A DNA stretch of 61,813 nt, filler included, from Chthonomonadaceae bacterium (lineage in GTDB: Bacteria; Armatimonadota; Chthonomonadetes; Chthonomonadales; Chthonomonadaceae): NCBI GenBank assembly GCA_035650735.1. It is 3 parts of 3 records of this genome, joined end to end, with 100 filler letters (N's around TTAATTAATTAA, not from the genome) between each part and the next. Parts side by side here need not be neighbours in the genome. Positions count along the whole stretch, not along the records: positions 54,553 to 61,813 come from DASRGZ010000070.1; 2 more parts are not named here. One strand, 5' to 3'. The position numbers and the translations under genes are program-made. Each line of letters opens with the position of its first letter. Positions within the stretch are counted from its first letter, which is position 1. The notes below the pieces were generated by a model that did not search any database, was not told where the DNA came from, and saw nothing but the letters and a program-made list of their open reading frames with translations. Shown here piece after piece: positions 12,174 through 56,468 of the stretch.

Positions 12174-12273
12174 CCTCCAGGGAAAGCGTAGCTTACGATG
12201 GGATTCTTGTCGGCCTCGCCTGGAAAGGGTTGTGACCAAAAGCCTCCAGGGAAAGCGTAGCTTACGATGGGAT
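12174..12273. repeat. 31-bp perfect direct repeat flanking a unique 38-bp insert
   Basis: cctccagggaaagcgtagcttacgatgggat at 12174-12204 and 12243-12273. Confidence 0.9.
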
Positions 12274-21827: not shown

Positions 21828-23177
21828 ATGCCTCTGAACTCCATACGCAGCCGCATGACGCTGGCGTTTGCGTGCTCCACGGCACTGCTGATGTTCTTAG
21901 CCTGTGGCGTCCTGACCTGGTATGCCTGGCACGCAGCGGAGCAGAATGCGCGTACCCTTCTGCTGGCGGCCACTCAGAAAATCTATGATGATCTCACCGA
22001 CGATGAGCATCAAGTGCCTGTTTTCGCCCTTGTAGGTGAAGAAGAGGAGATGTTGGGGCCTAACAACATGGCTCTGCTCGTTGTAGACGCGCGAGGCCAT
22101 GTCATTGCTCAGTCCCGACGCGACATTCCGGCCTGGCCCCACCCTCGGCAGGACGACTGGCGGCTGCAAACTTTGCCTTTCGGCTCCTATACCATTGTCA
22201 TTGGGCTTCCCTGGCGCGCAACCGGGCAGGCGCTCTACCATCAAGCGATTCTCTTGTTCCTCCTGAGCCTCGTCGTCACCATAGCCGCCGCTTTGGGAGC
22301 CTGGCTGCTGGTAGGGCGCACGCTCTCCCCCATTACGGCCTTGTCGAGGCAGGCGCAAACCGCTTCCGCAGAAAATCTGCATCTCCGGCTCAATGCGCCC
22401 TCTGAGGACGCCGAGATCGCCGAATTGGTCTCTACGCTGAACGGACTACTCAGACGCATCGCAGATACCGTTGCGGTAAAAGAGCGGTTTCATGCGGCAG
22501 CTTCCCATGAATTGCGTACGCCTCTGCAAGTCCTGTCAGGCCATCTTGAATTAGCCTTAAATCGAGAGCGCTCTAACGAGGAATATCGCCGGTTTATTGA
22601 GGAAGCGAACACTCATTCGCAGAGGCTGGTTGCCCTGACGCGCGATCTTCTGCTTCTCCATCAACTGGATTCGGCCCAACCCACCCTAAAAACGGAGGTC
22701 CACCTGGCAGACATCTGCGAGCGCGTCCTGAGATCGCTAACTCCCTTGATCCGGGAACGCGCTCTCCACATGCATACGGAGTTACCAGAGGACGCGATTA
22801 TCGAAGCCGCGCCCACCCATGCCGAGATGTTGGTGCGCAACCTGATGGAAAACGCAGTGAAATACGCGACGCCAGGGGGCCATATCCGCATCTGTCTGTG
22901 GACCTGCCCAGACCGAATGGAACTTACCATCTACAATGAATGTGCGCCTTTGGCGTCAAGAGACCTCGACAGATTGTTTGAGCCGTTCTATCGCCCGGAT
23001 GCAGCGCGCAACTCCGATACAGGTGGCACAGGCTTGGGCCTGGCGATCTGTAAAGCCATTGCTGAGGCCAACGGATGGAAATTAACGCTGCGGCAAGCGC
23101 AGGGCGGTATAGAAGCCTCCGTTGTGTTGAGCGTCCCTTCAGAACAAACGCAGACTCAATCAGAAACCCGGTATTGA
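21828..23177 (+). CDS. Sensor histidine kinase (HAMP, HisKA, HATPase)
   Basis: Two TM helices, ASHELRTPL, NLMENAVKY, FEPFYR, GTGLGLAI. Confidence 0.95.
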   Translation: MPLNSIRSRMTLAFACSTALLMFLACGVLTWYAWHAAEQNARTLLLAATQKIYDDLTDDEHQVPVFALVGEEEEMLGPNNMALLVVDARGHVIAQSRRDIPAWPHPRQDDWRLQTLPFGSYTIVIGLPWRATGQALYHQAILLFLLSLVVTIAAALGAWLLVGRTLSPITALSRQAQTASAENLHLRLNAPSEDAEIAELVSTLNGLLRRIADTVAVKERFHAAASHELRTPLQVLSGHLELALNRERSNEEYRRFIEEANTHSQRLVALTRDLLLLHQLDSAQPTLKTEVHLADICERVLRSLTPLIRERALHMHTELPEDAIIEAAPTHAEMLVRNLMENAVKYATPGGHIRICLWTCPDRMELTIYNECAPLASRDLDRLFEPFYRPDAARNSDTGGTGLGLAICKAIAEANGWKLTLRQAQGGIEASVVLSVPSEQTQTQSETRY

Positions 23178-23222
23178 CGACACCCGGATCGAATTGGGCA
23201 GCCCTTCAGAACAAACGTAGAC
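23127..23222. repeat. Degenerate 29-bp direct repeat around a 38-bp insert
   Basis: ttgagcgtcccttcagaacaaacgcagac (23127-23155) versus ttgggcagcccttcagaacaaacgtagac (23194-23222), 25/29 identical. Confidence 0.7.
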
Positions 23223-30135: not shown

Positions 30136-30480
30136 GCGGCAGGCTAAACCCTGCCGCTGTGGGGCGCAAAGCGCCCGTCGCCCACCTACGTGGGCGAGGC
30201 TTTCTGCCTGCGTAAGCAGGCAGCAGGGCTACCCATAGAGAGGGATGGGGACGATCCGGGGCTCATTAGATCCTCTGCCCGCGTAGGTAGGCAGCAGGCC
30301 TCGCTCGGCGGAGGGTTGTCGCAAGGCGGAGCCGTGTCGCAAGGTGTCGCAAGGCGGAGGCAAGGGCCGTAACCTTGCCGCCCCTGGCAGTGGGGCGAAC
30401 CATGGCAGCCCCGACCCTGGCAGTCCATTGCAGCGCCGACCCTTGCAGTAGGCCCCACAGCGGCAGGGTTTAGCCTGCCG
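30136..30480. repeat. REP-like cluster with four nested micro-element left ends (30301-30449) and a 28-bp duplication around a 43-bp insert (30203-30301)
   Basis: Same arms as the 14713 copy; the right arm overlaps the murB stop codon. Confidence 0.85.
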
Positions 30481-38952: not shown

Positions 38953-39204
38953 TCAACAGGATGAACAGGATTTGGCAGGATTAGGTAATCGCTCCCAACG
39001 GTGTGGACGTACCTCCTCAGCAGCAGGCTGCGTGAGATTGATCCACACGGCTGGGAGTGTCTACCCAGGATTAAACAGGATCTCTAAAACCCACCCAACC
39101 AACCGAATACCTATGCCTCTGAACTTCAAATTGACTACAAGGCTTCTATCTCTAGCTCTTGTCTTCATCCTGTAAATCCTGAAAAATCCTGTTCATCCTG
39201 TTGA
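38953..39204. repeat. Element bounded by 21-bp perfect inverted repeats built from CAGGAT units
   Basis: tcaacaggatgaacaggattt (38953-38973) / aaatcctgttcatcctgttga (39184-39204), with further CAGGAT copies inside. Confidence 0.8.
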
Positions 39205-40555: not shown

Positions 40556-40573
40556 GCTTTAGGCGGGTAGACG

Positions 40574-40605
40574 AAAAGCCCCAGGGGTCACTCTTCTGGG
40601 GCTTG
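40574..40605. terminator. Intrinsic terminator-like hairpin after the integrase
   Basis: aagccccag-loop-ctggggctt. Confidence 0.65.
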
Positions 40606-40698
40606 TGCTTGTGCCAGCGTATCGGTCAGCTTGACCGGGAATGGTTGCGAGGCTCATTGCGTAGTATAAATAGATACCAACGGGAGGAATAGGACACT

Positions 40699-40896
40699 TT
40701 GCGCACAAAGAAGACACTGTTGACCATCCGAGAGACGATGGAGAAACTGAGCGTGAGCAGAAGCACCCTGCATCGCTTAGCGGCGAGTGGCGAGTTGCCC
40801 TGCTGCCACATCGGGCGGGCAGTGCGCTTTCACAAGGATGTCATAGACAGCTTCCTCGGACGGCTGATGCAGCAAGAGGCTGAGCAGAAAAGCTGA
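40699..40896 (+). CDS. Excisionase-like HTH (HTH_17)
   Basis: LLTIRETMEKLSVSRSTLHRLAASGELPCCHIGRAVRF; GGAGG RBS, TTG start. Confidence 0.85.
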   Translation: MRTKKTLLTIRETMEKLSVSRSTLHRLAASGELPCCHIGRAVRFHKDVIDSFLGRLMQQEAEQKS

Positions 40897-41418
40897 CATC
40901 CCCGAAACAGTGGAACAAATGGAACAAATCAGGGCAAATAAACGACGTATCATTGAGACACATTCAGACCTCTGGTGAGACCACCAGCGTCGCTCCTACA
41001 CCACAAATCGCACCCCGAAGTGCGATTTCCTCATGCCCCGATGCAAAAACGTTTTTCCGTATGGGTCATCCTGTGATATAGCGTCCCTGCTATGCCATCA
41101 GCGACCTTTGGTTGCTGAGTTTCTGTTAATGGGCGAAAATGACGATGGCCCATTCACTGTTACCAGCAGTGAATGGGCCAAAGATGGAGTGTGTGGTATA
41201 CCCAACTCCTGCCTCGATTGGAGACGTGGCAGGAGTTATTATATCACACACGCTATGTTTCGTCAATTCCGCCCGCCTCTATTTGGCAGGTGAGATGACA
41301 TTTTTTGCCTTCCCGCCGTCCCCGCAATGCGCGGGGCGTTTCGGGGCGCTGTCGCATATCTCACCAGCCGCGACAAGCGCCCTTTTTTTTACAAGGGCGC
41401 GGCGGAGAAACAAAACAC

Positions 41419-41664
41419 GTGTGTGATCAAACAACCGTTTGCAAACTGTGTGATGATGAGACGGGCGCGCTGGTGCGCGTCACGTTCGGGCGTTGGCGGC
41501 TGTATGGCGTCATCGTTTTTGCCACATTCAACGGTATTGGTATCAGTTGGCCCCGGCGCGTTTACGACCAGGCGCGCAACCGCTGGAGGATGATTGATAC
41601 CGTTCCGCCTGATGTTCTCCAGGCGGCGGAGAGGGCGCTGCGCGGAGAGGGAGGGTTGGCGTAA
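41419..41664 (+). CDS. Small protein, possibly SpoVG-like nucleic-acid binding
   Basis: VRVTFG.WRLYGVIV....GIGISWPRR pattern resembles SpoVG; TAATG coupling to the primase gene. Confidence 0.5.
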   Translation: MCDQTTVCKLCDDETGALVRVTFGRWRLYGVIVFATFNGIGISWPRRVYDQARNRWRMIDTVPPDVLQAAERALRGEGGLA

Positions 41665-44543
41665 TGGTGCCCTCCATCCCCTGCAACCCCGACGCCCTCC
41701 CCCACGAGATGCGCAGCTATCCGCAGTGGGTGTGCTGGAAGCTGCTGCCGCCTGAGAAGGAGGGCGACAAGCCGCGTAAAATCCCTTACAATCCCCGAAC
41801 CGGCAAATGCGCCGACCCCTCCGATCCCTCAACCGGAGGGACGTTTGCCGATGCCGTCGCCGCTTACCGGCGCGGAGGCTACGCCGGGGTCGGCTTCATC
41901 TTCGGCCCCGACGATCCCTTCATCGGCGGTGATATTGACGCCTGCCGCGATCCCCAGAACGGCCAGATCACCCTGGAAGCCCAGGCTTTCATTATCCTGG
42001 CCGACACCTATACCGAGGTCAGCCCAAGCGGCACCGGCGTCAAGTTCATCGGCAAGGGCCAGAAGATCGGCCCGGCCTGCAAGCGCGGCAACTTCGAGAT
42101 GTACGACAAGGGGCGATTCTTCACCCTCACCGGCTGCCATGTCCCTGGCACGCCCATGACCACAGAGGTGAGGCAGGAGGAGTTCGCCGGGCTGTACCAC
42201 GCCTGGTTCCCGCAGGAGGAGAAGCCGGAGAAACCGCCTCGACAGCCGCATACCACACCCCCCTGTGACCTTCTGCCCGATGACGGCGCGCTGCTGGAGA
42301 AAATCCGGCAAAGCGGCCAGGGGGCCAAGTTCTGCGCCCTCTTCGACCAGGGCGATCTTTCTGGCTACGGCAACGACGCAAGCCGGGCGGATGCGGCGCT
42401 CTGCTGTATCCTGGCCTATTGGACGCAGAAAGATGCCGAGCGCATGGATCGCCTCTTCCGGCGCTCGACGCTTATGCGCGACAAGTGGGACGAGAGACGC
42501 GGCACCCAGACCTACGGCCAGCGCACGATCCAGAATGCGATTGAGAGAACGACGCGCGTTTATGAGCCAGGAGTCAAGTCCGATGAGGCTGTCGGGGCAG
42601 GTGAAGACGCCCTGCCCACGCCGGAACCGCCTGCCGAGGAACCGGCCAGCGCGTTGACTAAAGAGGCATGGCTGAAGCGGGGCAAGCGGCTGCACGCCTG
42701 GTTGAACGAATGCAAGGAGACCTTCTATTGGCTGGCGGCGGACTGGTATAACGCCAAAGTCAAGAATCTGCCTTTTGGGCAGCGGGATAAATACGTGCGG
42801 ACGATTTTCGGCGATGTCCTGGCCCGGCAGATACACAATTGGGCCACTGTCGCCACGCACTGGGCGGAAGAAGAGCGCCAATACGACTTGCCGTTCTGGC
42901 TGCATACCGAACTGGCAACGCAGCCGCAGGAGAAGCGGACGCAGTACATGGAGGCGTTCCGTAAATCCGGCTTCCGGCGTGAGGAGTTACGCGCCTGGTT
43001 GGGCATCAAGCCATTGCAGAAGCGGCGGAAATGGTGGCAGATCGTTAAGCAGGATGTGCCCGACTCGATTGGAGTGAAGTTGGCGATGGCGCTGGAGTGC
43101 GACCCGGCCAAAACGCTGAAGCGGCTGGAAGTGGCCCTGGGCCTGAATGTCTACGACCCCGACGCCGCGCCCATTGAGTACCAGACGGACACAGAGTTGG
43201 TGGGGGAGGCGCAGGCCCATGTCGGCGGCCTGGCGCAAGCGTGCGCAGAGGCTCAAAACGCGGCAAAAACGGGCTTAGCGAACGTCCATATACTGGACGC
43301 CCAAAACGGCGATTTTGAGATGGAAAACGCCTCAAATCCGGCTTCTAATTTTCACGCCGGCGTGAAAATTGACGCCTCAGAACAGGCTCCTCCAGCAACG
43401 CAAAAAACACCGTATATACCCCCCTGTGATCACATATATAAGGAAACTTCCCCCCGCGTGGAGGCCGACCCTTTCGGCGATGATACGGATGACACTCCGC
43501 CCGCCACACCCTCGCCACCGATCCCTGGCCCTCCGCCACCGCCCTCGGTGGGGATCGTCGTGACGTTGACGAATGAGCAGCTAGAACGCGCCGAAAAGTT
43601 CGCCCAGGAGCGCAAACGCGGTCACGACCACTGCCGCCGTCGTGTTGAGGATAAGGGCAGCGACCAAGCCAACCTCCAGGCCGACCGGGTTGGCATGAAG
43701 GCGGAGGTGGGCCTGGTGGAATCCCTTGAGGCCAACGACCTGCATCCCGAAGGCTGGATACCTCTGGCTGACCATGCCCCCAATGGGCCGGATTTCGCTC
43801 TCGCCGGGACGCCGTTTAATGTCAAGTGCGCTCGCCCCGGCTCCCGCTTCATCTACGTCAATGAGGCGCAAAGGCTGAGGCAGGAGGGCAAGGGGGGGTA
43901 TTGCTGGCCGGTTGCCCTTCTGGATGAGCACCGCCTCCTCCTCTATAAGCCCGTTCCCTGGGCAGAGGTCGCCAAGTGGACGCTGATTACCGGCAGGGGC
44001 AGTTCGCCGTTCCGCTCCGTAGAACTCGACAAGCTGGAACCCCTCTGCAATCTGGCTGACATCCGGGCGCTGCTCCACCGCGCCGACGACGCTAACCAGG
44101 ATGCGTTGCCCTCGCCCCCTACTGAGGCTGATGGCGATCCACGCACCGCCGATGTCCCTGGTGATACATCCGGCGATGTTCACGATGGCGGCGATGGTGA
44201 GGAGGAGGCCGAACCCTGCGTCTACTGCCAGCAAGGGCGTGCGATCTATCCGCGCGGCTCCTGCGCACCCACGATCTGCGCCGGTTGTTGGGCGGATCGC
44301 CAAGAGAGCAACGCCCGTGAGCGGGCCGACAACGCGGAGGAGCGGCAGACGACCTTACCCACTGATGGCACAGAGGACGCTTACGAAGGGGCAGATGATG
44401 GCCCCTTCTCCTGGGCGGGCCTCATCGAAGAAGGGACTGAACCGTCCCGGCCTGTACCCCGCGTGCCCAAGATCAAGCGCCTGGAAATCGCATGGCGCTC
44501 TGGCTCGCGCAACAAGGCCAGGACATCCCTGACGCCCCGATGA
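41664..44543 (+). CDS. AEP primase-polymerase (NrS-1-like PrimPol + helix bundle) with an atypical C-terminal region
   Basis: PQWVCWK..KIPYNP, GDID, TEVSPSGTG, EMYD..RFFTLTG; D.S.AD.ALC..LAYW...MDRLFR.S.LMR.KW; no Walker A motif found. Confidence 0.85.
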   Translation: MVPSIPCNPDALPHEMRSYPQWVCWKLLPPEKEGDKPRKIPYNPRTGKCADPSDPSTGGTFADAVAAYRRGGYAGVGFIFGPDDPFIGGDIDACRDPQNGQITLEAQAFIILADTYTEVSPSGTGVKFIGKGQKIGPACKRGNFEMYDKGRFFTLTGCHVPGTPMTTEVRQEEFAGLYHAWFPQEEKPEKPPRQPHTTPPCDLLPDDGALLEKIRQSGQGAKFCALFDQGDLSGYGNDASRADAALCCILAYWTQKDAERMDRLFRRSTLMRDKWDERRGTQTYGQRTIQNAIERTTRVYEPGVKSDEAVGAGEDALPTPEPPAEEPASALTKEAWLKRGKRLHAWLNECKETFYWLAADWYNAKVKNLPFGQRDKYVRTIFGDVLARQIHNWATVATHWAEEERQYDLPFWLHTELATQPQEKRTQYMEAFRKSGFRREELRAWLGIKPLQKRRKWWQIVKQDVPDSIGVKLAMALECDPAKTLKRLEVALGLNVYDPDAAPIEYQTDTELVGEAQAHVGGLAQACAEAQNAAKTGLANVHILDAQNGDFEMENASNPASNFHAGVKIDASEQAPPATQKTPYIPPCDHIYKETSPRVEADPFGDDTDDTPPATPSPPIPGPPPPPSVGIVVTLTNEQLERAEKFAQERKRGHDHCRRRVEDKGSDQANLQADRVGMKAEVGLVESLEANDLHPEGWIPLADHAPNGPDFALAGTPFNVKCARPGSRFIYVNEAQRLRQEGKGGYCWPVALLDEHRLLLYKPVPWAEVAKWTLITGRGSSPFRSVELDKLEPLCNLADIRALLHRADDANQDALPSPPTEADGDPRTADVPGDTSGDVHDGGDGEEEAEPCVYCQQGRAIYPRGSCAPTICAGCWADRQESNARERADNAEERQTTLPTDGTEDAYEGADDGPFSWAGLIEEGTEPSRPVPRVPKIKRLEIAWRSGSRNKARTSLTPR

Positions 44544-44683
44544 CACGCTCAGGGCCGTGCCGCGACGCACGCCCAACCTTTCGTGTGAAGGCAGGCCATG
44601 ATGCCTTCCGGCGTTCGCAGGAGACGCTGGTGATCTTTGCCTAATCCACATTCTGCGTGGTGGCATCCAGATGTTGGCTATCT

Positions 44684-44887
44684 CTATGAATGCGGTGTAA
44701 ATGGGCCAATGCGATATTGCCGGATACGTGAAAAAGCCTTGATCTCAATTAAGTCAATTGTTGGATCGCCGCCTAAATCTCTGGCCGTGTCCATGTCCTT
44801 CTGCAAGACATGGACGATGCCAACACCATCAACTTGATACTCACCCGGCTCCTCAACGTCTCCGAGATCACTCCAACGGCACTGCAT
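44684..44887 (-). CDS. Small hypothetical protein (element cargo)
   Basis: AAGGAGG RBS; 67 aa with globular composition. Confidence 0.65.
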   Translation of the reverse strand: MQCRWSDLGDVEEPGEYQVDGVGIVHVLQKDMDTARDLGGDPTIDLIEIKAFSRIRQYRIGPFTPHS

Positions 44888-45108
44888 AAGCTACCTCCTT
44901 TTTGTGCTCGACAGTTATCCCAACCGACGACTACCGTTGCTTCTCTAGAGACGACGCTGCAACCAGGCAGAAAGTGTCGCGCCGCTCGGCAAGTTTTTTT
45001 CGGGATTATGGCAGCCACACAAAAGCCCTGCCTCTCTGTAGACCAGAGGCCGGGCATTCGCCATCATTAACAGCGTTGATCATTGGGTTCCCGCTCAGCG
45101 GTGTTCCT

Positions 45109-45152
45109 ACAAACAAGCCCTGCTCTGTGCTGTGCGAGCAGGGCTTGTTTGT
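45109..45152. terminator. 17-bp-stem hairpin, bidirectional terminator-like
   Basis: acaaacaagccctgctc-10 nt-gagcagggcttgtttgt. Confidence 0.6.
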
Positions 45153-45627
45153 CTATGGTTGGCTGCCTCAGTGCGGCTCTTGATAGGAATAAAGGCGTTC
45201 TGGCAGATAGGGAGGGAACCTCCCTGTCAGGCTTCTCGTCTCTAAGCAAATTCTGGGCAAGGAACCGCCATGCAGTCAACCGGAAAAGTCTCTAGCCGGT
45301 GTCCTAACTGTGGCCGACAGCTTCGACGATGGGCCTGGCGCTGCTATGCCTGCCCCTGGAAAAGACGGCTGTCTCCCCTGCTGCTCACCTTACTGGCCGT
45401 GCTGGTCTGGCTGCTGGTGGCCCTGATACACCATCGCTAAGCCCCTATAACCTCCTAACCGTGCTCAGCCATCACAGACAGGATTGCCAGGGCTTCCTAC
45501 TGCTTGCGCATTATTTCTCAAATTAGCGGAACGTTTTCTGCCAGCCCACGTCTTCTGCCTGAGTTCTGAGACAGAGGCTTTCTTTGGAAGCACTCTGCCG
45601 GAAACTGAAACACACAAAGGGAAATCA

Positions 45628-45894
45628 ATGGACATCTTAGACACTCAACCCAAGACCATGCCCCGCACTGACCATCGCGAAGGGCCGGTGGCGCGCACGA
45701 TTGAACAACAGACGGCCAAGCTGCCCTCGGATACCTTCCTCTGGGCTGCTTTAGGCTCGATTGGCGTCTCCCTTATCTTCAAGATGATGGACAAGGATGA
45801 GACGGCCAACTTCATCGGTCAGTGGGCACCCACCCTTCTGGTTCTGGGTCTCTATAACAAGCTGGTCAAGCTGGAAGGCTCGGAGGGGGCCTAA
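45628..45894 (+). CDS. Small membrane hypothetical protein (element cargo)
   Basis: HREG.VAR.IE.QTAKLPSD.FLWAA...FIGQWAPT.L.LGLYNKLVK pattern with two hydrophobic segments. Confidence 0.75.
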   Translation: MDILDTQPKTMPRTDHREGPVARTIEQQTAKLPSDTFLWAALGSIGVSLIFKMMDKDETANFIGQWAPTLLVLGLYNKLVKLEGSEGA

Positions 45895-46554
45895 ACGGTT
45901 GGCCTCCTGCGCGTTCTCAGCATTCCTGGGGCACAGGGCCGATTCTGAGGGCGCGCACTGGAATGCATTCCTGCTGCCTGGAGCGAGGGCTGGAAGTCTG
46001 TGTCTCCAGCCCTCGCTCTTTGGAATAAGTCCACCTGGAAGATGCCGGGGGCGCTATGGGTTTCCTTTGCCGGTGGCAAGCATGTGAGGGAACCGAGGAG
46101 GCCGCGTTCCCGTCATAGCGAGGCCATCATCGTCCATGATGGTACCAGGGAGGCATAGCCCCGGACGGCTTTCTGCCTCCCTGCTCATTCAGCCCCCGTC
46201 CGTGCCTATCGCTAAACCCGTTAAGCACACTCCGCCTACTCCATCCGTCAGGCGACCTTGCCCGACTCCTTCGCGCTGCCGCGCGTCTCTTGCAACTCTT
46301 CATCGGTTTCTCCGTTTCGATAGCTATCTGCGCCAACTGATTACGTGCGCAGGCCCCTGAGAAAGTGCAGACACCGCCTGCACAATTTGACCCCTTGACC
46401 TCGGTTAAGCCCCTCCTACCCCCCCCCTCCTGTGTTCGCCTTCTGAGGCTGCTAGAAGGAGTCGCGCGACTCCTTGTTACGCTGGCTCCCGCCCGGCATA
46501 AAGATAGGCAGAAGAGGCAACGGTCTCTTTGTTACCGTGATCGGGAGGTCAAAT

Positions 46555-46758
46555 ATGCAGACGCAAGCACCGCAGAAGCTGCTGCTCGACATTGAGACGG
46601 CGGCAGAGAAGCTGTCTCTGAGCCGCAGCCACGTCTATCGGCTGGTAGCCGAAGGGCGGCTGCCGGTGGTGGTCATCGGCAGGAATCGCCGCATCCCGGC
46701 GATGGCGCTGGAACAATTCGTCGAGGAACGGTTGCAACCCAGTCGGGAGGTCAAGTAG
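46555..46758 (+). CDS. Second excisionase-like HTH (HTH_17)
   Basis: LLLDIETAAEKLSLSRSHVYRLVAEGRLPVVVIGRNRRI; GGAGG RBS. Confidence 0.85.
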   Translation: MQTQAPQKLLLDIETAAEKLSLSRSHVYRLVAEGRLPVVVIGRNRRIPAMALEQFVEERLQPSREVK

Positions 46759-47040
46759 ATGAGCATGGCAACTTTGCTTCAAAACGATGCCAAAGCCACC
46801 GATGCCGTACTTGCCGCGCAAGCAAAATGCCAGCGTGTCCGCTACGACGTGGAGGACGCACTGCGAACCGGTGACGCCTCGGCTCTTGCCGCCGTCCGAA
46901 ACCGCATTGGCGCTGATTGCTTGCATTTTGCCATTGCCAACACCCGCCAGGAGGTCGCCGGTATCGGCTTCGACCGCCGATCTGCTCTACGCGGGCTGCC
47001 GTCAGCAAGCCAGCGGATGGATACCCCGCTTACAGTGTGA
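46759..47040 (+). CDS. Hypothetical protein
   Basis: Abuts the previous stop codon; GGAGG RBS. Confidence 0.6.
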   Translation: MSMATLLQNDAKATDAVLAAQAKCQRVRYDVEDALRTGDASALAAVRNRIGADCLHFAIANTRQEVAGIGFDRRSALRGLPSASQRMDTPLTV

Positions 47041-47047
47041 CCTGGAG

Positions 47048-47278
47048 ATGGTAGAGGCCGCTGTCACCAGAGCAAGACGGGCTAGGGCCGTCCTCTTGGC
47101 CTGGCTGGAGAGCAACCTGCCCTACTGGCTCGGTGATGCTGACAGCCTGCGCCCGGTGGACGGCAAGAAGGTTTACTACCAGCCGATTGGCGGCGGGCCA
47201 GCGCAGCCGGTGGGCGACGCCAACGCGGCTCTTGCAGATTGGGTTCTACGCGGAGGGCCGACCTGGCTTGCCCGATAA
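47048..47278 (+). CDS. Hypothetical protein
   Basis: Fills the operon gap; start uncertain. Confidence 0.5.
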   Translation: MVEAAVTRARRARAVLLAWLESNLPYWLGDADSLRPVDGKKVYYQPIGGGPAQPVGDANAALADWVLRGGPTWLAR

Positions 47279-47298
47279 CTTATGGAGGATAGACACAA

Positions 47299-47574
47299 AT
47301 GAGCAGATTTGACCAAGCCTACAAACGCTTCAAAGAGCGCAAGAAGCTAGAGAAAGCGGCGGCTATGCAGAAAGCCCTCACGTCCGCGCCTCCGCCCTCC
47401 CCCTACGTGCCGCGCCAGCAAGCGACCCACTTGATGGATCGCCTTGTCAAGCTGCGCGAGAGCGGCCAGCAGGTACCTTTCGACAGCCGGGACGTGCAGC
47501 AGGCAAACGCAGGCTGGTTGACGCGCGAACGCTATACGCATCTTGATGGCCTGGCGAAAGCGTTGGGCGGCTAG
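47299..47574 (+). CDS. Hypothetical protein
   Basis: GGAGG RBS; 91 aa. Confidence 0.7.
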   Translation: MSRFDQAYKRFKERKKLEKAAAMQKALTSAPPPSPYVPRQQATHLMDRLVKLRESGQQVPFDSRDVQQANAGWLTRERYTHLDGLAKALGG

Positions 47575-47595
47575 GCGAGTAAGGAGGCCAAAAAC

Positions 47596-48192
47596 TTGAC
47601 TAATTTTGACGCTTCCCGCCCTGGCCCGAAGCTGCCTCCTGCTGCCAGGAAGTTGATCCGGCAGCGCCTCATCGCCGGAGACAGCAACGATCAGATACAG
47701 GCGGCGCTGGAGAAAGAGGGCTATCCGCGCGTCTCCCGGCAGGCGCTCCACCGCTATCGCCAGTCGCGCAAGGTGCAGGAGGCCCTGGCTATGATGGACA
47801 TAGAGAGCGTGCAGTGCGGGTTGGCCCTGCGCGCACGGCGCATCATGGCGTTGGCGCAGCACGCCCAAGATTTGTGGCAGCGCATGACCGGCAGGGTGGT
47901 AGGCTTTGAGGACATGCCCCGCCTGCCCGCCGATAAACTGAGCCTCGTTCTGCTTGGCCGCGAGTTTCGCGCTACCCTGGAGGCTATCTCCAAGCTGGTG
48001 GACACCCCTGCGGCACGTCCTGGACTCTTCTCGGCATCGTCCACGCCCGCCGACGAAGCGCCCGATACCATAGAACCCGCCCTGGATCGCACCTTCGTCA
48101 TCGGGCAGCTTAACGACGCGCTGGAGAAATTTTTGGAAAGACACGAGCGGGAGCAGGCGCAGGCGCAAGAGCAGGCCGGGGGCGAAGGCTGA
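47596..48192 (+). CDS. Terminase small subunit-like HTH protein (Mu gp27/DUF3486- or DUF2280-like)
   Basis: KLP...R..I...L..G.S..QI...L...GY..VSRQALHRY N-terminal HTH followed by helical REFRATLEAISK; AAGGAGG RBS. Confidence 0.55.
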   Translation: MTNFDASRPGPKLPPAARKLIRQRLIAGDSNDQIQAALEKEGYPRVSRQALHRYRQSRKVQEALAMMDIESVQCGLALRARRIMALAQHAQDLWQRMTGRVVGFEDMPRLPADKLSLVLLGREFRATLEAISKLVDTPAARPGLFSASSTPADEAPDTIEPALDRTFVIGQLNDALEKFLERHEREQAQAQEQAGGEG

Positions 48193-49067
48193 TGCTCTCC
48201 TACCGCCCTGTCCGGCGCTTTCTTGTGCTCATCAAGGCCATCCAACCGCCCTCGGCCAGCCCGCCAGGAGAATACATTCACAGGCGTGTCGGCGGTCGGA
48301 TTTACTTCACCAACGAGGGCGAAAGCCTCTTCCGGCCTCTCTTTCAAGGAACGGGGGCCTTTGTCCCTGCCCGCTCCGTCGTTGCATGGCAAAACATCCT
48401 CCAGAACCTTCTGGAGCAGCCAGCCATGCAGGCCGACCTAATCACCGCAGGCCGGATGCGCCGCCTGTATGATGCCATCGAGGCGGCGCATCGGCACACT
48501 GGGCACCAGGGCATTACCCTGATCATGCCCGATACGCGCCTGAAGGAAATCAAAAACACCGTTAGGCATGAGGGCATCCATTTGGCCCTCTGGCAGCTTC
48601 GAGAGGCAGAGGCCGAGCATCGGCAGATGATGACGGCCCTGCACGATCATTTGCAAGCGCATCCCCTGATGCCCAAAGTCACGACCAAGCTAAGGGATGT
48701 CGGGTATCCCGACAATCCTTTCACTCTGGCCCATGAGACCGCCGCTTACGTGGGTGGCGGCGAGCATCGCCTGTTAGGGTTGACCGACGAGGAGGGCGAG
48801 CAGTTGCGCCGTCATCTAGTGGTCGGGCTGCACCAACTCGTGGGCGATCCCGATAAGGTCTACCGCCTCTTTACTCACAGCATCGGCCCACCGAAGGAGA
48901 CTATTCATGAGTACAGACAAAACCCGGAAGCCTTCATTGCCGCCGCTCAGCCCGGAGCAGCGCCGGTTGGCCGCCTGGAACCTGCGGGCGCTAGTGCTGG
49001 CCTACAAGCTGAGCGGGCCAGCGGGCTACGACCGGGCGCACAGTCATCTGTTCCCCCATCGGACTGA
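48192..49067 (+). CDS. Zincin-like metallopeptidase-motif protein
   Basis: TVRHEGIH (HExxH) and a downstream HETAAY third-ligand motif. Confidence 0.6.
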   Translation: MLSYRPVRRFLVLIKAIQPPSASPPGEYIHRRVGGRIYFTNEGESLFRPLFQGTGAFVPARSVVAWQNILQNLLEQPAMQADLITAGRMRRLYDAIEAAHRHTGHQGITLIMPDTRLKEIKNTVRHEGIHLALWQLREAEAEHRQMMTALHDHLQAHPLMPKVTTKLRDVGYPDNPFTLAHETAAYVGGGEHRLLGLTDEEGEQLRRHLVVGLHQLVGDPDKVYRLFTHSIGPPKETIHEYRQNPEAFIAAAQPGAAPVGRLEPAGASAGLQAERASGLRPGAQSSVPPSD

Positions 49068-49095
49068 CCCCAGGGCGGACAGCGAGAAACACTAA
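48907..49095 (+). CDS. Small hypothetical protein
   Basis: AAGGAG RBS; overlaps the low-complexity tail of the previous ORF. Confidence 0.5.
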   Translation: MSTDKTRKPSLPPLSPEQRRLAAWNLRALVLAYKLSGPAGYDRAHSHLFPHRTDPRADSEKH

Positions 49096-49120
49096 ACAAG
49101 AACAAAAGGGAGGAGGGACG

Positions 49121-49639
49121 ATGAACACGAGAACCGCACAGACGACCGTTCATATCTACACGGATGAGGACGGCAACGAGGGCTTCCTGCCGGAAGAGGG
49201 CGACATCCAGGAGGCCCGCCGGGTGATCGCTGAGTTGCGCCAAGAGGCCCAAGCCATCCCGGAGACCACAGAGAAGGACAGGTCGCGCAAGCAGAGAGCC
49301 TTGCGGTGGATAGCGGCAGGAGAGAGGATGCTTGTCTCCATGCAGGCCACGCGAGACCGCTGGCTGCCCCATGCGGTGGAGTTGACCTTCACGCTGAAAC
49401 TGCCCACCCAGGAGGCGTTGGAGGCGGCGATCCGGGCCTCCACCTGGACAAGCCGGGACGGCTCCTTAACCTGTGTAGACGACCTGGCGCTCTCGCAGCG
49501 CCTTCTTCCTCACTCCCTTGCGAACATGACCCCGGAGGAGGTCGAGGGTCTGGACTATCCTCTGGGTTGCGTCCTCTGGCAGCGGCTGCGGCGTCTCCTG
49601 CCCACCATCACCCCGCTTCTGCCCCAGGACGCCGTGTAG
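49121..49639 (+). CDS. Tail assembly chaperone-like protein, paralogue 1
   Basis: Aligns by eye along its length with 49665-50219 (LP.E.D, ATR.R.LPHA..TF.LK.P, MTP.EV..L, LW..L). Confidence 0.55.
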   Translation: MNTRTAQTTVHIYTDEDGNEGFLPEEGDIQEARRVIAELRQEAQAIPETTEKDRSRKQRALRWIAAGERMLVSMQATRDRWLPHAVELTFTLKLPTQEALEAAIRASTWTSRDGSLTCVDDLALSQRLLPHSLANMTPEEVEGLDYPLGCVLWQRLRRLLPTITPLLPQDAV

Positions 49640-49664
49640 AACCATCACAGAGGAGGATATACGC

Positions 49665-50219
49665 ATGTCCAGCATTCGCCAGATCAAAGTTACGTTGACT
49701 ATCTTCGCCGACGAGCGCACCGGCGCGGAGTACATCTTGCCCGACGAGGCGGATTTCGCCGAAGAGGAGGCCCGCCTGGAGGCGCTGGAGGCCGAGGCCA
49801 ACGGCTGGCTGGCCTCCAAGCACAAGCCGACCCAGGCCAGGGGCAAGGCGCAGATGGAGGCCGTCGAAGGGATGCGGGCCGCCTTAGCCCGCCAGAGGGC
49901 CACGCGGGAGAGGCTGCTGCCCCATGCCCAGAAGCGCACCTTCATTCTCAAAAAGCCCAACTACGGCGCTTACCTGGAGGCCGAGAACGCCGCCAAGCAG
50001 CTTAACCAGGAAACCGGCGACGTGACGGTTGACCAGAGCCTGCTGATGCAGCACCTACTCCCGACCTCTATCGAGGGCATGACCCCGGCGGAGGTCAACG
50101 ACCTGGCCCCCAACGTCGTCCGCCATCTGTGGGGCAAGTTGTACGGGGCCATCTGGCCGGATCGAGGCCGCCTCCCTTTCTCGTGCTGGCCGTCCGAGAC
50201 GCCCTTGACGGACGGCTAA
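49665..50219 (+). CDS. Tail assembly chaperone (gpG-like), paralogue 2
   Basis: GAGGAGG RBS; in-frame C CCT TTC slippery heptamer at 50174-50180; upstream of the tape-measure-like gene. Confidence 0.65.
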   Translation: MSSIRQIKVTLTIFADERTGAEYILPDEADFAEEEARLEALEAEANGWLASKHKPTQARGKAQMEAVEGMRAALARQRATRERLLPHAQKRTFILKKPNYGAYLEAENAAKQLNQETGDVTVDQSLLMQHLLPTSIEGMTPAEVNDLAPNVVRHLWGKLYGAIWPDRGRLPFSCWPSETPLTDG

Positions 50220-50392
50220 ACAACTACGACCGCCTGCTCTACGAGGCCCAGGTCTACCTGGTGTGGCGGCAGACAGGGCAGTTGCCAGCGGCTACTATCT
50301 ACGACCTGCCCTGCGATCTGGTCTTGACGCTCTCGGCCATCCACAGCGACGTTGAGGCTGAGGGTGCCGAGCACGCGGCCCGACAGGATTAG
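50174..50392 (+). CDS. -1 frameshift extension (gpGT-like)
   Basis: ORF 50129-50392 is in the -1 frame, lacks an obvious RBS, and contains W..TGQLP...IYDLP. Confidence 0.6.
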   Translation, partial: PFLVLAVRDALDGRLNNYDRLLYEAQVYLVWRQTGQLPAATIYDLPCDLVLTLSAIHSDVEAEGAEHAARQD

Positions 50393-50616
50393 AACGTAGG
50401 CAGCTTGCCCTGGCTGGCTGCCTCTGGTGTCAGGCCAAAGCCGAAGTAAGCGATCAAAAACACCAGGATGCCAATGGCAAGAATGATCCAAAAGGTAAGC
50501 ATGGCGCTTTTGGGAGTAGCGCGTCCATAGCGCCGATCTGCATTGTAGAGGTAGGCATCCAGCGCCAGCCTCTCCAGGTTGTCTTTGCCGGGATCGTGCT
50601 GCTGTCCATCCAACAT
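50389..50616 (-). CDS. Small single-TM protein on the opposite strand between chaperone and tape measure genes
   Basis: AAGGAG RBS; MLTFWIILAIGILVFLIAYFGFG TM helix. Confidence 0.6.
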   Translation of the reverse strand: MLDGQQHDPGKDNLERLALDAYLYNADRRYGRATPKSAMLTFWIILAIGILVFLIAYFGFGLTPEAASQGKLPTF

Positions 50617-50659
50617 ATCCGTTCTCCTTCTGCTCGCTTATGGTGAGAGTCTAACACAA

Positions 50660-53650
50660 ATGCCACCTAATAATCAACTCAATAACACAATTAGAGACGC
50701 GATAAACGACCTGACGGATTCAGCGGCAGAGTTTCGCCGCCTGCGTGATACGCTCCGCACCATCAACGACCGTTTCGGCGGGGCCAGGTCTTCTGATCCC
50801 CTCTCCTACAGCGCCGTGCCCACCGCCTCCAATGGGGGCATACGCGGCGACATCGCCGCCTGGCAGCAGTACGACGTGCAGCGGGTCGTTGGCGAACAGG
50901 TCTCCCGACTCTTCGTGGGTATCACCGATGTCTATCTCACCCAAATGCGCCAGATAGCTGCCTCCCCATCACTCTCCACCATGCAGATGGCCGCGATTCA
51001 GTCGCAGGCGACAGGCGGCTACTACGGCGCGACCTTACCGGCCATTGGGACGGCAGTGGGCGCAGGAATCGGGGCGCTGTTGGGGAATCCGTTCTATGGA
51101 GCCGCTGCCGGTAATGCGCTTGGCAGCCTCGCCGGGGGCTACCTTAACAATATCTACAACTACCAGGCTACCATCCAGCAGCAGCTAGGTGTCAGCCAGC
51201 AGCTTGCCTCTCAGATCGGTTATCTGCGCGGCAGCACAGGGGCGGGCGTCCTGGGCCAAGCCTACTTCAATGCAACTCTCGCCCGCCAGCCTATCGCCAA
51301 TCAGGTCGGCGATCTCTACGCCCTGGCTATCTCCAACCCTGTGTTCCGAAGCCTCCCGCCCGACGCCTTCACGCAGTTGTACGCTGCGACCGCAAGCGCT
51401 GACTTCCCCGAAGGCAATCCGGGCCTGATGGCCCTGCGCTTGCAGGGGGGCCTCTCCATTGCGCAGCTTTATCCCCAGCACCAGGGCGGCACGGATGCCT
51501 ACCAGCGGTTTCTGGGTTCTGCCCGCATCCGTACCGATCCGAACCCGGAGTCGCCGGAGGACTGGTGGGCCAAAACCCTGGGTCATGGGCGTAGAAATCT
51601 TGTGCCAGGTGGGACGTGGGAGAAAGTGCGCGCCTATGACATCGCCCACTACTATCCCCGCACCATACAGGTCTCCGAGCGCGTGCCCGGCGACTACGAC
51701 CCCTACATGGCCGCTCTCTTCGGCGACACCACCGCCTTCAACCAGGCGCTAAGCGACTTCCCCGCTCAGGCCCAGGCCCTCGGCTTAGCACGCGAGGAGT
51801 ACGTCATGCAGGGGCAGATGACCGCCCTGACCGCTAGGATCGCCGGTGCCGACGTAGCTTCGTACCAGGCCCTCCTGGCGGGCGGCACCAACCTACAGGG
51901 CCTGCGCCAAGCCGGGGCCTATGCCCTCTCGGAGTTGAACCTGTCGGCTCAGGCCCCATTGGCCCGCTTGCAGAACCTCCAGCGCCGGTTCAATCCCAAC
52001 AACCTGCCCCTGCAAGAGTTGGCCCTGACCAATCCCACCGCCGCCAACGCCCTCGCCGAGGCGCAGCAGGAGTACGGCGGACGGCAGATGGCCGCCGCCC
52101 TGTTTGGCCGTGAGAACACCTTCCAGCAGATCGGCATGGTACAAACCCACCTCCAAGCCATCGGTATCAAGGGTGAAGTCGGGGTGCAGCAGGCCCTCTT
52201 CGGCGGCAACCTGGAGACTATCGCCGGAGCCTATCAGCAGCAAGTCCTCAACGCCCAACAGGCCCAAGCCTCCTACCTGGCCCTCTCCAAGCTGCCGGGG
52301 CTGTCGGAGGCCCAGAGGGAGTTGTACGGCGGGCTGGCGGGTCAGGCAGGCTACCAGGCCAATACTCTGCTCCCGATGACCGGCGAGTTAAGCCGCTTCT
52401 CGCTGGTGCAGTCGGGGATCGAGGCGCAGCGGGCCTACGCCGGGGCGCAGGTGGCTTATGGGGCCGCTTATGGCACGGCAGGGGCCGTCTACCAGGGCCA
52501 CCAGGGCGAGATCGCCGCCTTGCAGCAAGACCTTTCCAACCTCTGGCAGACCATCACCTCCGGCAAGTTGGGCGCGCAGGAGTTGAACCGAGCCTGGGCG
52601 CAACTCAACGACACTCAGAGGCGGCTGGTGGAGTCCAGCGCCCGCGCGGTAGACGAGTACAACCGCATCCAGAACACGGTGGCCGACCTGGGGCGGGGCA
52701 TCACCGGCACGCGAGCCGAACGGGCCTTCCTGACCGGCAGGGGAGGGATAGAGGGGTTAGGCTACGTGCAGGCCGACATCGGCGCGGCCAGGGAGGTCGC
52801 CAGCACCCGCTACCAGTCCTTGCTCAATGTCTACAACGACATCAAGCAGAACAACCCCGGCCTCACCGACGCGGAGATACTTAAGAACCCGCGTTACCTG
52901 GAGGCGCTTCACCAGTACGAGCAGGCGCAGACGGGGGTGGCGGCCTCTATTCTAAACCAAGCCAGCGTGCCCTTTGCCGCTGGTGAGGAGAACCGCTACC
53001 GGCAGGCCCAGTTTACCGCCGATGTCCTGCAATCTCTGCCGGGCGCTTACGGCAACCTGCGGGGGGCGCTCCAGGGCGTGTATACCGGCAGCCAGAACCG
53101 GGTAGCGCAGCTTCAGCAGATGAAGGCGCAGGCGCTGGAAGGGATCACCGATCCGGGCCAGCGCGACGAGATCGCCCTGCGCTTCGATGAGCGTATCCGC
53201 CAGGAGACCATGACGGGCGTGCGCGCGTTCAATCAGCTTAGCTACGGGTGGGAGGCACGGCTCATCAGCAACGTCATGGGCGCGTCTGGTAACTTCTCCG
53301 GCGTCGGCAACCGCTTCTCCTACATGGCCTCGGTCTTAGGCGGCGTGACCAATCCCCACTTTGGCGCAAACGCCTCGCAGCTTCCCTTCTTCTTAGAGCA
53401 GGCCGGATACGCGGGTTCTCTCGCAGGCGCTACCGGCACGCCCCAGGGCTTTGCGGCGACGGCCTTAGCGGGTCAGGGCCAGCGCCAGATGCCGGTGCAG
53501 GAGCATCATATCACCGTCACGCTGGAGTGGCCGGATGGCAGCCAGGCCGGGCAATTCACCCTCAACACGGGCAAGGGCGGCGGCAACGTCATGGGCCAGT
53601 TTGAGGACATGGCCAACCGCTTCGTCCTCCAGAACCAGGGGAACAATTAA
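50660..53650 (+). CDS. Tape-measure-like protein (~996 aa)
   Basis: Ala/Gln/Gly-rich and helical; N-terminal coiled coil; glycine-zipper GTAVGAGIGALLG..GAAAGNALG; C-terminal ITVTLEWPDG strand; follows the G/GT pair. Confidence 0.65.
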   Translation: MPPNNQLNNTIRDAINDLTDSAAEFRRLRDTLRTINDRFGGARSSDPLSYSAVPTASNGGIRGDIAAWQQYDVQRVVGEQVSRLFVGITDVYLTQMRQIAASPSLSTMQMAAIQSQATGGYYGATLPAIGTAVGAGIGALLGNPFYGAAAGNALGSLAGGYLNNIYNYQATIQQQLGVSQQLASQIGYLRGSTGAGVLGQAYFNATLARQPIANQVGDLYALAISNPVFRSLPPDAFTQLYAATASADFPEGNPGLMALRLQGGLSIAQLYPQHQGGTDAYQRFLGSARIRTDPNPESPEDWWAKTLGHGRRNLVPGGTWEKVRAYDIAHYYPRTIQVSERVPGDYDPYMAALFGDTTAFNQALSDFPAQAQALGLAREEYVMQGQMTALTARIAGADVASYQALLAGGTNLQGLRQAGAYALSELNLSAQAPLARLQNLQRRFNPNNLPLQELALTNPTAANALAEAQQEYGGRQMAAALFGRENTFQQIGMVQTHLQAIGIKGEVGVQQALFGGNLETIAGAYQQQVLNAQQAQASYLALSKLPGLSEAQRELYGGLAGQAGYQANTLLPMTGELSRFSLVQSGIEAQRAYAGAQVAYGAAYGTAGAVYQGHQGEIAALQQDLSNLWQTITSGKLGAQELNRAWAQLNDTQRRLVESSARAVDEYNRIQNTVADLGRGITGTRAERAFLTGRGGIEGLGYVQADIGAAREVASTRYQSLLNVYNDIKQNNPGLTDAEILKNPRYLEALHQYEQAQTGVAASILNQASVPFAAGEENRYRQAQFTADVLQSLPGAYGNLRGALQGVYTGSQNRVAQLQQMKAQALEGITDPGQRDEIALRFDERIRQETMTGVRAFNQLSYGWEARLISNVMGASGNFSGVGNRFSYMASVLGGVTNPHFGANASQLPFFLEQAGYAGSLAGATGTPQGFAATALAGQGQRQMPVQEHHITVTLEWPDGSQAGQFTLNTGKGGGNVMGQFEDMANRFVLQNQGNN

Positions 53651-54552: not shown

Positions 54553-54782
54553 CTTCCCGCAGCGGGTAGTCGCGTTGGGGAGCGTCTTGGGTCATCAGGG
54601 TCAGGTAAGGGGCCACAAAGGCCCATTCGTCATCAGAGACATCACTGGGATAGGGCTTGCGAGTAGACATACGTACCCATACTGCTTACAAGCGACGCGG
54701 CGCCAGCGCCTCGCCGACCTGGGACAGCTTAAGACATACGTACCCATACTGCTTACAAGCCCCCAAAGTTCATAACACGCTC
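54553..54782 (-). mobile_element. Left end of an IS5-family element; transposase N-terminus at 54670-54553
   Basis: [23 protein letters not shown]; candidate end GAGCGTGTTATGAA preceded by CTA. Confidence 0.85.
54665..54760. repeat. 29-bp perfect direct repeat flanking a unique 38-bp insert
   Basis: agacatacgtacccatactgcttacaagc at 54665-54693 and 54732-54760. Confidence 0.92.
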
Positions 54783-54924
54783 TAGCCAGACTCCCCGCCG
54801 ATGAAAGCGCCCGACCGCGCCATATGGTCGGTTCGACTGCCGTATCCCTGGCGAATAGGTTGTGCAAATGCGTGCGCCCCTCCTGCCACCTAGAACCATA
54901 AGGCCAGTAGACATCTGTCAAGGC

Positions 54925-55200
54925 CATTAGTCGGTAGCTAGCCTCCGGCCAGCCTCAGCGTTGCACTGGGTGTGCCTGGTGGCATTAGCCGGTAGCTAGC
55001 CTCCGGCCAGAAGAGGTCAATCAGAACTTCACGGGAATGGACCTGGGAAGATAGTAGACCAGGTAGGCGAGCAGGCCCGCGACCTTCTGGGTCTTGAAGC
55101 GGGTGAGGGGCAGGTTGCCATTCTGGGCGTGCAGCCCCCCGAACAGGTGGATCCGCCAGGTTGGGTAAGCATGGGCAGGTTCACTTTCTAGCCGACGCAT
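54925..55200 (-). pseudogene. SARP/BTAD-type regulator N-terminal remnant containing a 28-bp duplication and 30-bp insert (54925-55010)
   Basis: WRIHLFGGL......TRFKTQKVAGLLAYL then frameshifted LIDLFWPE. Confidence 0.7.
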
Positions 55201-55342: not shown

Positions 55343-56468
55343 GATGTCTCAAATAGATGTCATATAATGGAGGAATGGCAAGTCGTCACTTTCAACTCAC
55401 CCAAGAGCAGGCCAACGAGTTACAGGCCGCTTACCTGTATTGCCAGGATGCCGCTACCAAAACACGCTATCAAGCGGTTCGGCTCTATGGCGTGGGCTAT
55501 CCGGTCGTCCAGATCATGGACATCACCGGCGCCAGTCGCACCAGTCTGATGGACTGGTGTCGGCTCTATCGAAAGAAAGGACTCCTCGGTCTGGTAGACC
55601 ATCGCGTCGGGGGCAATAGCGCCAAGCTCAGTGCCGAGCAGATCGAAGCCATCCAGAACCAACTGCATCGCTACACCCCCGCTCAACGCCTGGGCCAAGA
55701 GTTCTGCGTCGGCGACGGGCAGTTCTGGACGATTGCTGATCTGAAGCGGCTGGTGCAGCAGGAGTATGGAGTGCTCTACCAGAGCCAGAACTCCTACTAT
55801 AACCTGCTCAACAAGTGCGGCTTCTCTTTGCAACGCCCTGCCAAGCAGTACAAGTCGCGCTCCGAAGACAAAGGCATGGCCTTCGAGGAGGCTCTGGAAA
55901 AAAACTCGTAGACACGGCCCAGAACGCCCCTAAAACTGCGATCCTGGCAGGCGAGGAAGCCTCGCTGTATCTGCAAGCCTCCCTGATGCGGGTCTGGTCT
56001 CCGAGGGGACAGACCCCGGTGGTCAAGGTGCATCCGGGGCGGGAGAACACCCATTTCTATGGCGCGCTCAACTTGGCAACGGGCCAAGAAGTCGTGCTGC
56101 GTTCCGACCTGATGCAAGCGGAGGTTTCCGCTCTGTTCTTGCCGCAGGTCTTGAAGACCTATCCCGACCGACCTATCTTGCTGCTGTGGGATCGCGCTCC
56201 CTGGCATCAAGGGGAGGCTATCCGCTCGGTCTTGGCGGCGAACCCGCGTTTAGAGGTTGTGTGGTTGCCGCCGGGTTCGCCGGAGTTGAACCCGCAGGAG
56301 CAGGTCTGGAAAGCCGCGCGAGAAGCAGTGAGCCATAATCACCAGTGCGCGAAACTGTCCGCTTTAGCCGACGCTTTCGAGAAGTATCTGCGGGAAACGA
56401 AGTTTCCCTGTTCACTGCTGGACAAGCACCACTATCCTAACCTCTGTGCGAGGTTTATTTGAGTTGTC
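55343..56468 (+). mobile_element. IS630-family element; transposase in two ORFs (55357-55911, 55815-56462) joined by a -1 frameshift
   Basis: TA-flanked imperfect TIRs gatgtctcaaata / tatttgagttgtc; A AAA AAC at 55899-55905; WDRAPWH and SPELNPQE motifs. Confidence 0.92.

Follow-up and report, generated by a model that had tools for sequence, protein, structure and literature searches.

The closest described counterparts of the locus reported here are the neo-CRISPR loci of the E. coli type I-E system (Nivala, Shipman and Church 2018, as cited in 10.1101/148544, PMC7054753, PMC11788318 and PMC9456107). In the accounts that these citing papers give, the loci arise as rare events in a laboratory strain in which Cas1-Cas2 is over-produced, aided by IHF-like sites. 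As for other organisms, the accessible text of 10.1101/148544 reports circumstantial evidence of off-target integration in two further species and calls its commonness in nature unclear. The Cas1-Cas2 of P. furiosus carries out full-site off-target integration into plasmids in vitro (PMC6698737). The portion of that paper available to us describes non-CRISPR target sites that resemble the leader-repeat junction and the mid-repeat, cuts about 30 bases apart, and no preference in orientation. HU is presented, in the accessible part of PMC13769266, as a fidelity factor for the Cas1-Cas2 of Thermotoga profunda, a type III-A system studied in vitro whose integrase is error-prone without the DNA-bending protein. 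Our literature search, which mainly covered freely accessible texts, turned up no description of such events as a fixed natural load across a genome.

Here we analyse a window of 61,813 nucleotides from a Chthonomonadaceae bacterium (GCA_035650735.1), that is, three contigs of the host genome (C48, C49 and C70, where C denotes a contig of the host assembly) joined by N linkers. Near the start of the third contig, an IS5 element carries a spacer-sized insert between two copies of a repeat-sized duplication. This unit, and others like it that we call scars, resemble the E. coli neo-CRISPR loci in that spacer-sized DNA outside an array makes up repeat-spacer-repeat units. Unlike those loci, the scars number about 140, are fixed in a wild genome with a Cas4-linked type I-B-like system, fall into three size classes, show signs of purifying selection, and occur in a host in which no HU/IHF family gene was found. 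Repeat-like target sites and cuts about 30 bases apart are common to the P. furiosus reactions as far as described, but the scars studied here are inherited in the chromosome and have a motif of their own (GG at -3/-2, AAC at 11-13, T19). The parallel to Thermotoga is that PF00216 (the HU/IHF family) was not found in 40 of the 41 genomes of the order, host included; it differs from the in vitro type III-A case, as the available text presents it, in that relatives without a PF00216 match have few scars. Repeat and spacer lengths and PAM-flanked donors are shared with canonical CRISPR arrays. Unlike in such arrays, each repeat is local host DNA with no common consensus or ATTGAAAC end, there are normally only two copies, and no cas genes lie alongside. 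The scar repeats are unrelated to each other and do not form a shared, Cas6-processable repeat; the focal unit is not a canonical CRISPR array.

Results

A 29+38+29 unit inside an IS5 element

The focal unit consists of two identical 29-mers, 54665-54693 and 54732-54760 (C70:113-208 for the whole unit), with a start-to-start distance of 67 bases and a middle of 38 bases with 74% G+C. This is, base for base, the exact duplication around a 38-bp insert that the initial annotation had described. The left copy carries the first two transposase codons on the minus strand, and the duplication therefore does contain the start codon, as had also been claimed. The parts are as follows.

54553..54670, minus strand: IS5-family transposase, 5' part, 39 codons, ended by the contig edge
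54665..54693, no strand: duplicated target copy 1, adjoining the IS5 transposase gene and containing its start codon (minus strand)
54694..54730, minus strand: 37-base insert, identical to L104:10001-10037 within a host DUF1054 gene; on the minus strand the donor is immediately preceded by CCG
54731..54731, no strand: single junction base, unlike the donor and unlike the base preceding copy 1
54732..54760, no strand: duplicated target copy 2, adjoining the IS5 end
54765..54784, minus strand: IS5 terminal sequence; metagenome contigs diverge at 54784-54785

The divergence at 54784-54785 is what other insertion sites would produce. The transposase is identified by a weak DUF4096 match (E 0.048) and by N-termini that are near-identical in relatives' IS5 copies. 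Because the assembly contains no second copy of the focal IS5, we compared related copies from other genomes. The distance from the IS end to codon 4 is 57-63 bases in all eight of these, versus 123 in the focal element and 56 once the 67-base unit is taken out, and the duplication is absent from all eight rather than native to the family. The unit also differs from a native IS5 end or a transposition footprint: the target duplication of an IS measures 2-4 bases and lies outside the element, whereas this unit lies inside it, duplicates 29 bases and is missing from related copies. In three runs (two that may be the source of this DNA and a third that shares a study with possible sources), the IS body has a depth of 21-26 versus 9-19 at the scar junctions. 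From these contig depths we infer that an unfilled copy of this exact IS5 exists; none of the contigs listed skips the unit cleanly. The scar leaves the transposase reading frame unbroken. Because that frame and its 23 upstream bases are intact and the IS end is merely displaced by 67 bases, the scar is likely near neutral.

Similar scars recur genome-wide at fixed lengths

We scanned the 6.51-Mb genome (224 contigs) for ungapped two-copy repeats with periods of 40-160. Periods of 57-80, with inserts of 26-48 bases, yielded 192 candidates. We removed 42 that lie in multicopy elements, 6 whose repeats are CRISPR-like and 5 with a flank-like insert, which left 139 curated single-copy scars, on 93 contigs. 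Their density is 5.8 per period between 57 and 80 versus 0.18 at other periods. Because these 139 units compare with 17 over the remaining 97 periods scanned, and with none when a 6-mer-shuffled genome was put through the same scan, a chance origin of the set is excluded. The initial annotation had reasoned that a true integration signature should show as a length peak over background, and that inserts might instead prove to be degenerate copies of flanking DNA; the peak is sharp, and only 5 of the 192 inserts resemble their flanks.

The scars come in three sizes: 79 of about 30+37 (29-30-base copies, period 63-70; the main class), 38 of about 37+36 (36-38-base copies, period 70-80) and 7 of 28+33 (period 61-62), with 15 others. 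There are three size classes rather than the one geometry first described. Within the main class, 58 of the 79 scars have periods of 66-68, and the exact copies fit a mixture of about 36% 29-base and about 64% 30-base duplications. The two copies diverge by 1.8% in the main class and by 1.5% in the 28+33 class. Divergence in the 37-base class is 5.0%, which makes this class likely older.

Some units have been multiplied together with the element that contains them. A unit with a 73-base period sits in a repeated element at C40:5612 and 13 other places (14 copies), and some copies of the element are unfilled; smaller multicopy unit families have two or three copies each. Unfilled look-alikes were found for 42 of the 192 candidates, mostly within repeat elements. 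At a single site among the 139 (C224:43546-43710), an ectopic 29-mer occurs in three copies around two different inserts. This arrangement may represent a second integration at one ectopic site and possibly a newborn array.

The initial annotation had counted five scars in 62 kb. Five units are indeed present, but they are spread over three joined contigs. The four besides the focal one all have the geometry given for them, two (23127 and 30203) being weaker at only 86% similarity between copies. They are listed here together with a donor site found in the window.

12174..12273, no strand: scar of 31+38+31, exact copies; passes the genome scan
23127..23222, no strand: probable older scar of 29+38+29, copies 86% alike; below the scan threshold
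30203..30301, no strand: possible scar of 28+43+28, copies 86% alike; below the scan threshold; sits in a repeated element
54925..55010, no strand: second scar on C70, 28+30+28, period 58, one mismatch; passes the genome scan
55897..55934, plus strand: donor of the scar at C33:24622, 38/38 bases, CTG directly 5'; IS630-type transposase region

No donor was found for the scar at 12174..12273, and none in the assembly for that at 54925..55010, whose insert is shorter than those of the main class. The unit at 23127..23222 overlies the 3' end of a histidine kinase gene. The one at 30203..30301 has an unfilled look-alike at C40:27042-27139 (89%) and does not fit the target profile of the main class. 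On that profile, trained without the window's contigs, the focal site stands at the 99.5th percentile, 12174 at the 99.8th, 54925 at about the 90th, 23127 at about the 88th and 30203 at the 29th. Elsewhere in the window, 39551-53650 is prophage-like (tyrosine integrase, NrS-1 polymerase-like and Mu gp27-like products, a 1023-residue ORF with no Pfam match), and 19950-20065 and 38983-39065 are short elements present at very many genome sites with 97-100% identity.

Ten inserts match host DNA, mostly beside a PAM-like motif

For nine scar inserts, sharply bounded matches of 33-41 bases lie at distant sites of the assembly. The focal insert matches nothing there, but it appeared in a second context in contigs of three runs, and an exact search led to L104. 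L104 is host chromosome missing from the bin, because it extends contig C166 (100% identity across 1,370 bases) and includes dnaJ, dnaK and rpoZ. The focal donor is a 37-base match inside the DUF1054 gene and has CCG directly 5' on the minus strand. The early description of the insert as GC-rich was correct, but it is not foreign, since a host gene accounts for 37 of the 38 bases. In total there are ten donors; for 129 of the 139 inserts none was found.

CCG or CTG lies directly 5' of seven of the ten donors (seven of eight in the main class), is one base off in two and is absent in one; in two of the seven, the G is shared with the duplication. Against a background of 10% this gives P 1e-5 for a motif chosen after looking, or P ~2e-3 by our own estimate once about 200 possible patterns are allowed for. 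CC-type PAMs have been published for type I-B systems, in the accessible parts of PMC8482600 and PMC8406132. The search for donor loci and a PAM that the initial annotation proposed has yielded donors with a PAM-like motif.

Donors within the assembly account for 9 of 139 scars versus 0 of 79 array spacers, none of which has a protospacer there (P 0.016). Array spacer 40 and the focal donor share 16 bases, probably by chance, and two inserts compared with viral contigs gave no match. In three of the ten donor-checked scars (C70:113, C57:1424 and C31:3766), a junction base comes from neither donor nor target. Four of the ten self donors lie on C15, a 43.5-kb contig with ordinary genes including dnaE (corrected P ~1e-4). 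A replication terminus on C15 was considered but found no support, as the contig shows no skew switch and no dif-like match.

Target sites resemble the leader-repeat junction

An unsupervised fit to 66 main-class sites recovered GG at -3/-2, AAC at 11-13 and T19, with an information content of 7.9 bits versus 3.6-4.8 in five controls. In a 30-base register, AAC and T19 coincide with bases of the host repeat itself, and GG at -3/-2 is found in the leader ends of all seven same-Cas1-clade relatives listed. Scored against the host repeat, sites with 30-base copies (n = 28) agree with 5.9 of 12 core bases in register and with 3.0-5.1 in 30 shifted registers. Identity to the whole repeat, at 27 sites, is 37% in register versus 29% off register (maximum 34%). 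A six-position motif score by shift is circular and was kept out of the evidence. For the 37-base class, only a modest target signal emerged (4.5 versus at most 3.8 of 8 bases). The PAM side relative to target orientation is mixed, the orientation calls themselves being weak (GG 12/24 one way, 9/24 the other way). As an amendment to the initial annotation, the sites are non-random and biased to leader-repeat look-alikes.

We also considered that the resident leader-repeat junction might be too poor a target and found little support for this. Read as a 30-mer, the leader-proximal resident repeat has a profile score of 10.6 against 8.2-17.3 in relatives, a comparison that is partly circular because the repeat seeded the profile.

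The host CRISPR-Cas system and orphan arrays

The observation that no cas gene lies in the window is accurate, but cas genes do occur in the host genome, on contig C93 only. Their order is cas6, an unassigned gene, cas7, cas5, cas3, cas4, a partial type III module, cas1 and cas2, followed by the array. Pfam matches were obtained for Cas6, DevR/Cas7, Cas5, Cas3, Cas4, Cas1 and Cas2. The system appears to be type I-B-like, a subtype that we only infer because the gene at the cas8 position has no Pfam match. Its interference module is apparently complete. The cas1 gene on C93 is intact and the only one found in the assembly; no cas1 that would match the two minor scar classes was found. The array comprises 80 repeats of 29 bases, and 72 of its 79 spacers measure 36-38 bases. 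Because of these lengths, the first scar size (about 30+37) fits the host array: the main-class duplication of 29-30 bases has the length of a CRISPR repeat (29 in the host, 30 in relatives), and the focal insert of 37-38 bases that of a spacer.

Several features of the locus may be recorded here. A WYL-WCX regulator precedes cas6 (L238:1469-2479), and the partial type III module between cas4 and cas1 includes a short Cas10 and an APE2256 protein (L003:9435-14258). Cas1 (L003:8250-9428) contains an acidic insertion of 60-80 residues with conserved patches, which is common to Armatimonadota homologues and missing in two aligned outgroup proteins; its closest relatives, in Armatimonadota genomes, are 61-73% identical. 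The array repeat (L003:2502-7760) is one base shorter than those of all same-Cas1-clade relatives listed, and the resident leader has T at -2 where these have G. An IS21 element (L003:337-2393) adjoins the trailer end of the array.

Relatives with this Cas1 clade have 30-base repeats. Among relatives there are also I-E arrays with a period of 61 and 37-base arrays with periods of 71-80, corresponding to the two minor scar classes. Elsewhere in the host genome, and without a cas1, lie orphan type I-E-like repeats of period 61 and a single 36-base pair that ends in ATTGAAAC. These mini-arrays, I-E-like or with 36-base repeats, are at C109:6231, C126:9900, C19:53150, C127:3615 and C119:60732; those on C109 and C119 have AGAACCCT-rich flanks or a AGAACCCT-rich spacer, and a spacer on C109 has a match at C91:1275-1308, with AAG. 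When four genomes were searched by pattern for arrays with 37-base repeats, the yield did not exceed that of the control.

The excess is specific to the host lineage

Under one filter, with multicopy units included, the host has 180 units in 6.51 Mb, or 27.6 per Mb. In samples from relatives, which were non-random and covered 71-400 kb per genome, a same-genus genome yielded 2 units, each of the 37-base class, within 304 kb. Another 2 came from 2.06 Mb of fourteen further relatives, for which 57 were expected, and the 1.17 Mb from the seven relatives that share the Cas1 clade contained none (32 expected). Another 21 matches, in non-Armatimonadota Cas1 loci, are mostly true array units that pass the filter and were left out. 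The scar excess is lineage-specific. Because the same-clade relatives have none in the sampled DNA, the type of enzyme alone does not explain the load. Because several size classes occur in one lineage, a host property or weak purging would be a likelier source of the excess than a single faulty enzyme.

Two candidate causes were rejected as sufficient. The acidic insertion in Cas1 is clade-wide, yet these relatives have 0 scars in 1.17 Mb. The HU/IHF family, whose profile was detected in 9 of 14 controls, is not found in relatives that nevertheless have few scars; its absence may be permissive at most, and a different nucleoid protein may serve this lineage. Relatives have isolated scar-like units at L112:2388, L261:7703, L269:6757, L070:1247 and L091:5487, one of which crosses the 3' end of a cas1 gene.

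Scars are depleted within genes

By our own crude hexamer gene model, 18 of 137 scars lie wholly within predicted genes, versus 75% of random windows. Ten of these 18 are in frame (P 0.04), and frameshifting scars split Pfam domains, for example in a zinc dehydrogenase and a DUF362 gene. Gene edges are overlapped by 30 of 144 units, versus 4% of random windows. Selection likely removes most scars in genes.

Discussion

The focal unit very probably originated when Cas1-Cas2, an enzyme read here from its product, integrated a host fragment off-target at a leader-repeat look-alike in IS5. Spacer-like off-target integration by a CRISPR integrase, suspected in the initial annotation, is supported by the geometry, the donors, their motif, the target bias and the unfilled homologues, and the enzyme would most likely be the host's type I-B-like Cas1-Cas2 with Cas4. 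In the mechanism that we propose, Cas4-Cas1-Cas2 would capture a fragment beside CCG/CTG and trim it to 36-38 bases. The integrase would recognise GG just outside the site and the AAC...T motif inside it, and would join the fragment ends to opposite strands, 29-30 bases apart; gap filling would then leave the target duplicated. Because the product likely yields no working crRNA, self-derived inserts would persist. The 28+33 and 37+36 classes are likely the work of integrases of type I-E and of a 37-base-repeat system, neither of which still has a cas1 gene in the assembly.

The alternative that survives best concerns which enzyme wrote the main class. An earlier or mobile Cas1-Cas2 of the same clade, with a 30-base repeat, is a rather unlikely author, and we count its share within that of the best explanation. 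It fits as well because the resident array has 29-base repeats and no G at -2, whereas the main-class scars are mostly of 30 bases with GG at -3/-2, as in relatives' arrays; the other two scar classes are likewise without a matching cas1 in the assembly. Against this, 52 of the 79 main-class pairs are still exact and so recent, the sole cas1 in the assembly is intact, about one third of the scars fit 29 bases, and the leader-proximal repeat, taken as a 30-mer, has a (partly circular) score inside the relatives' range.

We consider it improbable that the scars formed without any CRISPR enzyme, by break repair in which short fragments were captured at staggered breaks and the overhang was duplicated. 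Donors that are ordinary chromosomal DNA, four of ten from one 43.5-kb contig, and junction bases of unknown origin would agree with such repair. To our knowledge, however, break repair produces no fixed geometry, donor motif or repeat-like targets, whereas the scars show a fixed 30+37 geometry together with both of the others. Ku was not found in the host genome or in four relatives, and the PAM and register tests largely refute this explanation.

Equally improbable is an origin as decayed tandem duplications, transposon footprints or native IS5/REP-like parts. The 42 candidates in multicopy elements, the unit with 14 copies and the five flank-like inserts out of 192 speak for it, but multicopy and flank-like candidates were removed before the 139 were counted. 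The curated inserts are no more similar to their flanks than random DNA (median similarity score 9 versus 10), related IS5 copies are without the unit, unfilled copies of repeat elements exist, and distant donor matches with sharp edges were found.

Still less probable is that the scars were selected as working one-spacer arrays or regulatory devices. The enrichment at gene edges and the duplication of a translation start by the focal unit might suggest a function, but edge enrichment is expected if such hits leave the gene intact. Furthermore, the repeats are all different, with a mean identity of 37% to the host repeat, and inserts that match the host's own DNA are retained although its interference module is apparently complete. 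Finally, an assembly or library artefact is scarcely credible even with 224 contigs and five of the eight listed runs as possible sources, since a contig from run X7 (another study, not marked as source) spans 54553-54761 with zero differences, differences between copies are mostly transitions (102/165) and the scars avoid genes.

Returning to off-target integration by Cas1-Cas2, a wider reading is possible, which we advance tentatively. The chromosome may be a dated fossil record of three integrases (the resident I-B-like one, a lost I-E and a lost 37-base-repeat enzyme), each of which would have acted as a genome-wide natural mutator in a lineage without HU/IHF. Its scars would record spacer capture that autoimmunity has not filtered, would break genes, would be multiplied by mobile elements and might be re-used as the start of an array, as at C224:43546.

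Off-target spacer integration has so far been treated as a laboratory effect of over-produced Cas1-Cas2 or as an in vitro reaction. About 140 fixed events in one wild genome would measure the collateral cost of CRISPR adaptation. They would give the target preference of the integrase and its PAM directly from sequence, reveal self-capture of a kind that arrays are unable to retain (in at least 10 of the 139 scars), and suggest how a new array could arise naturally from ordinary DNA. Since scars are nearly absent from close relatives that share the Cas1 clade, comparing these genomes becomes a tractable way to look for the fidelity factor.
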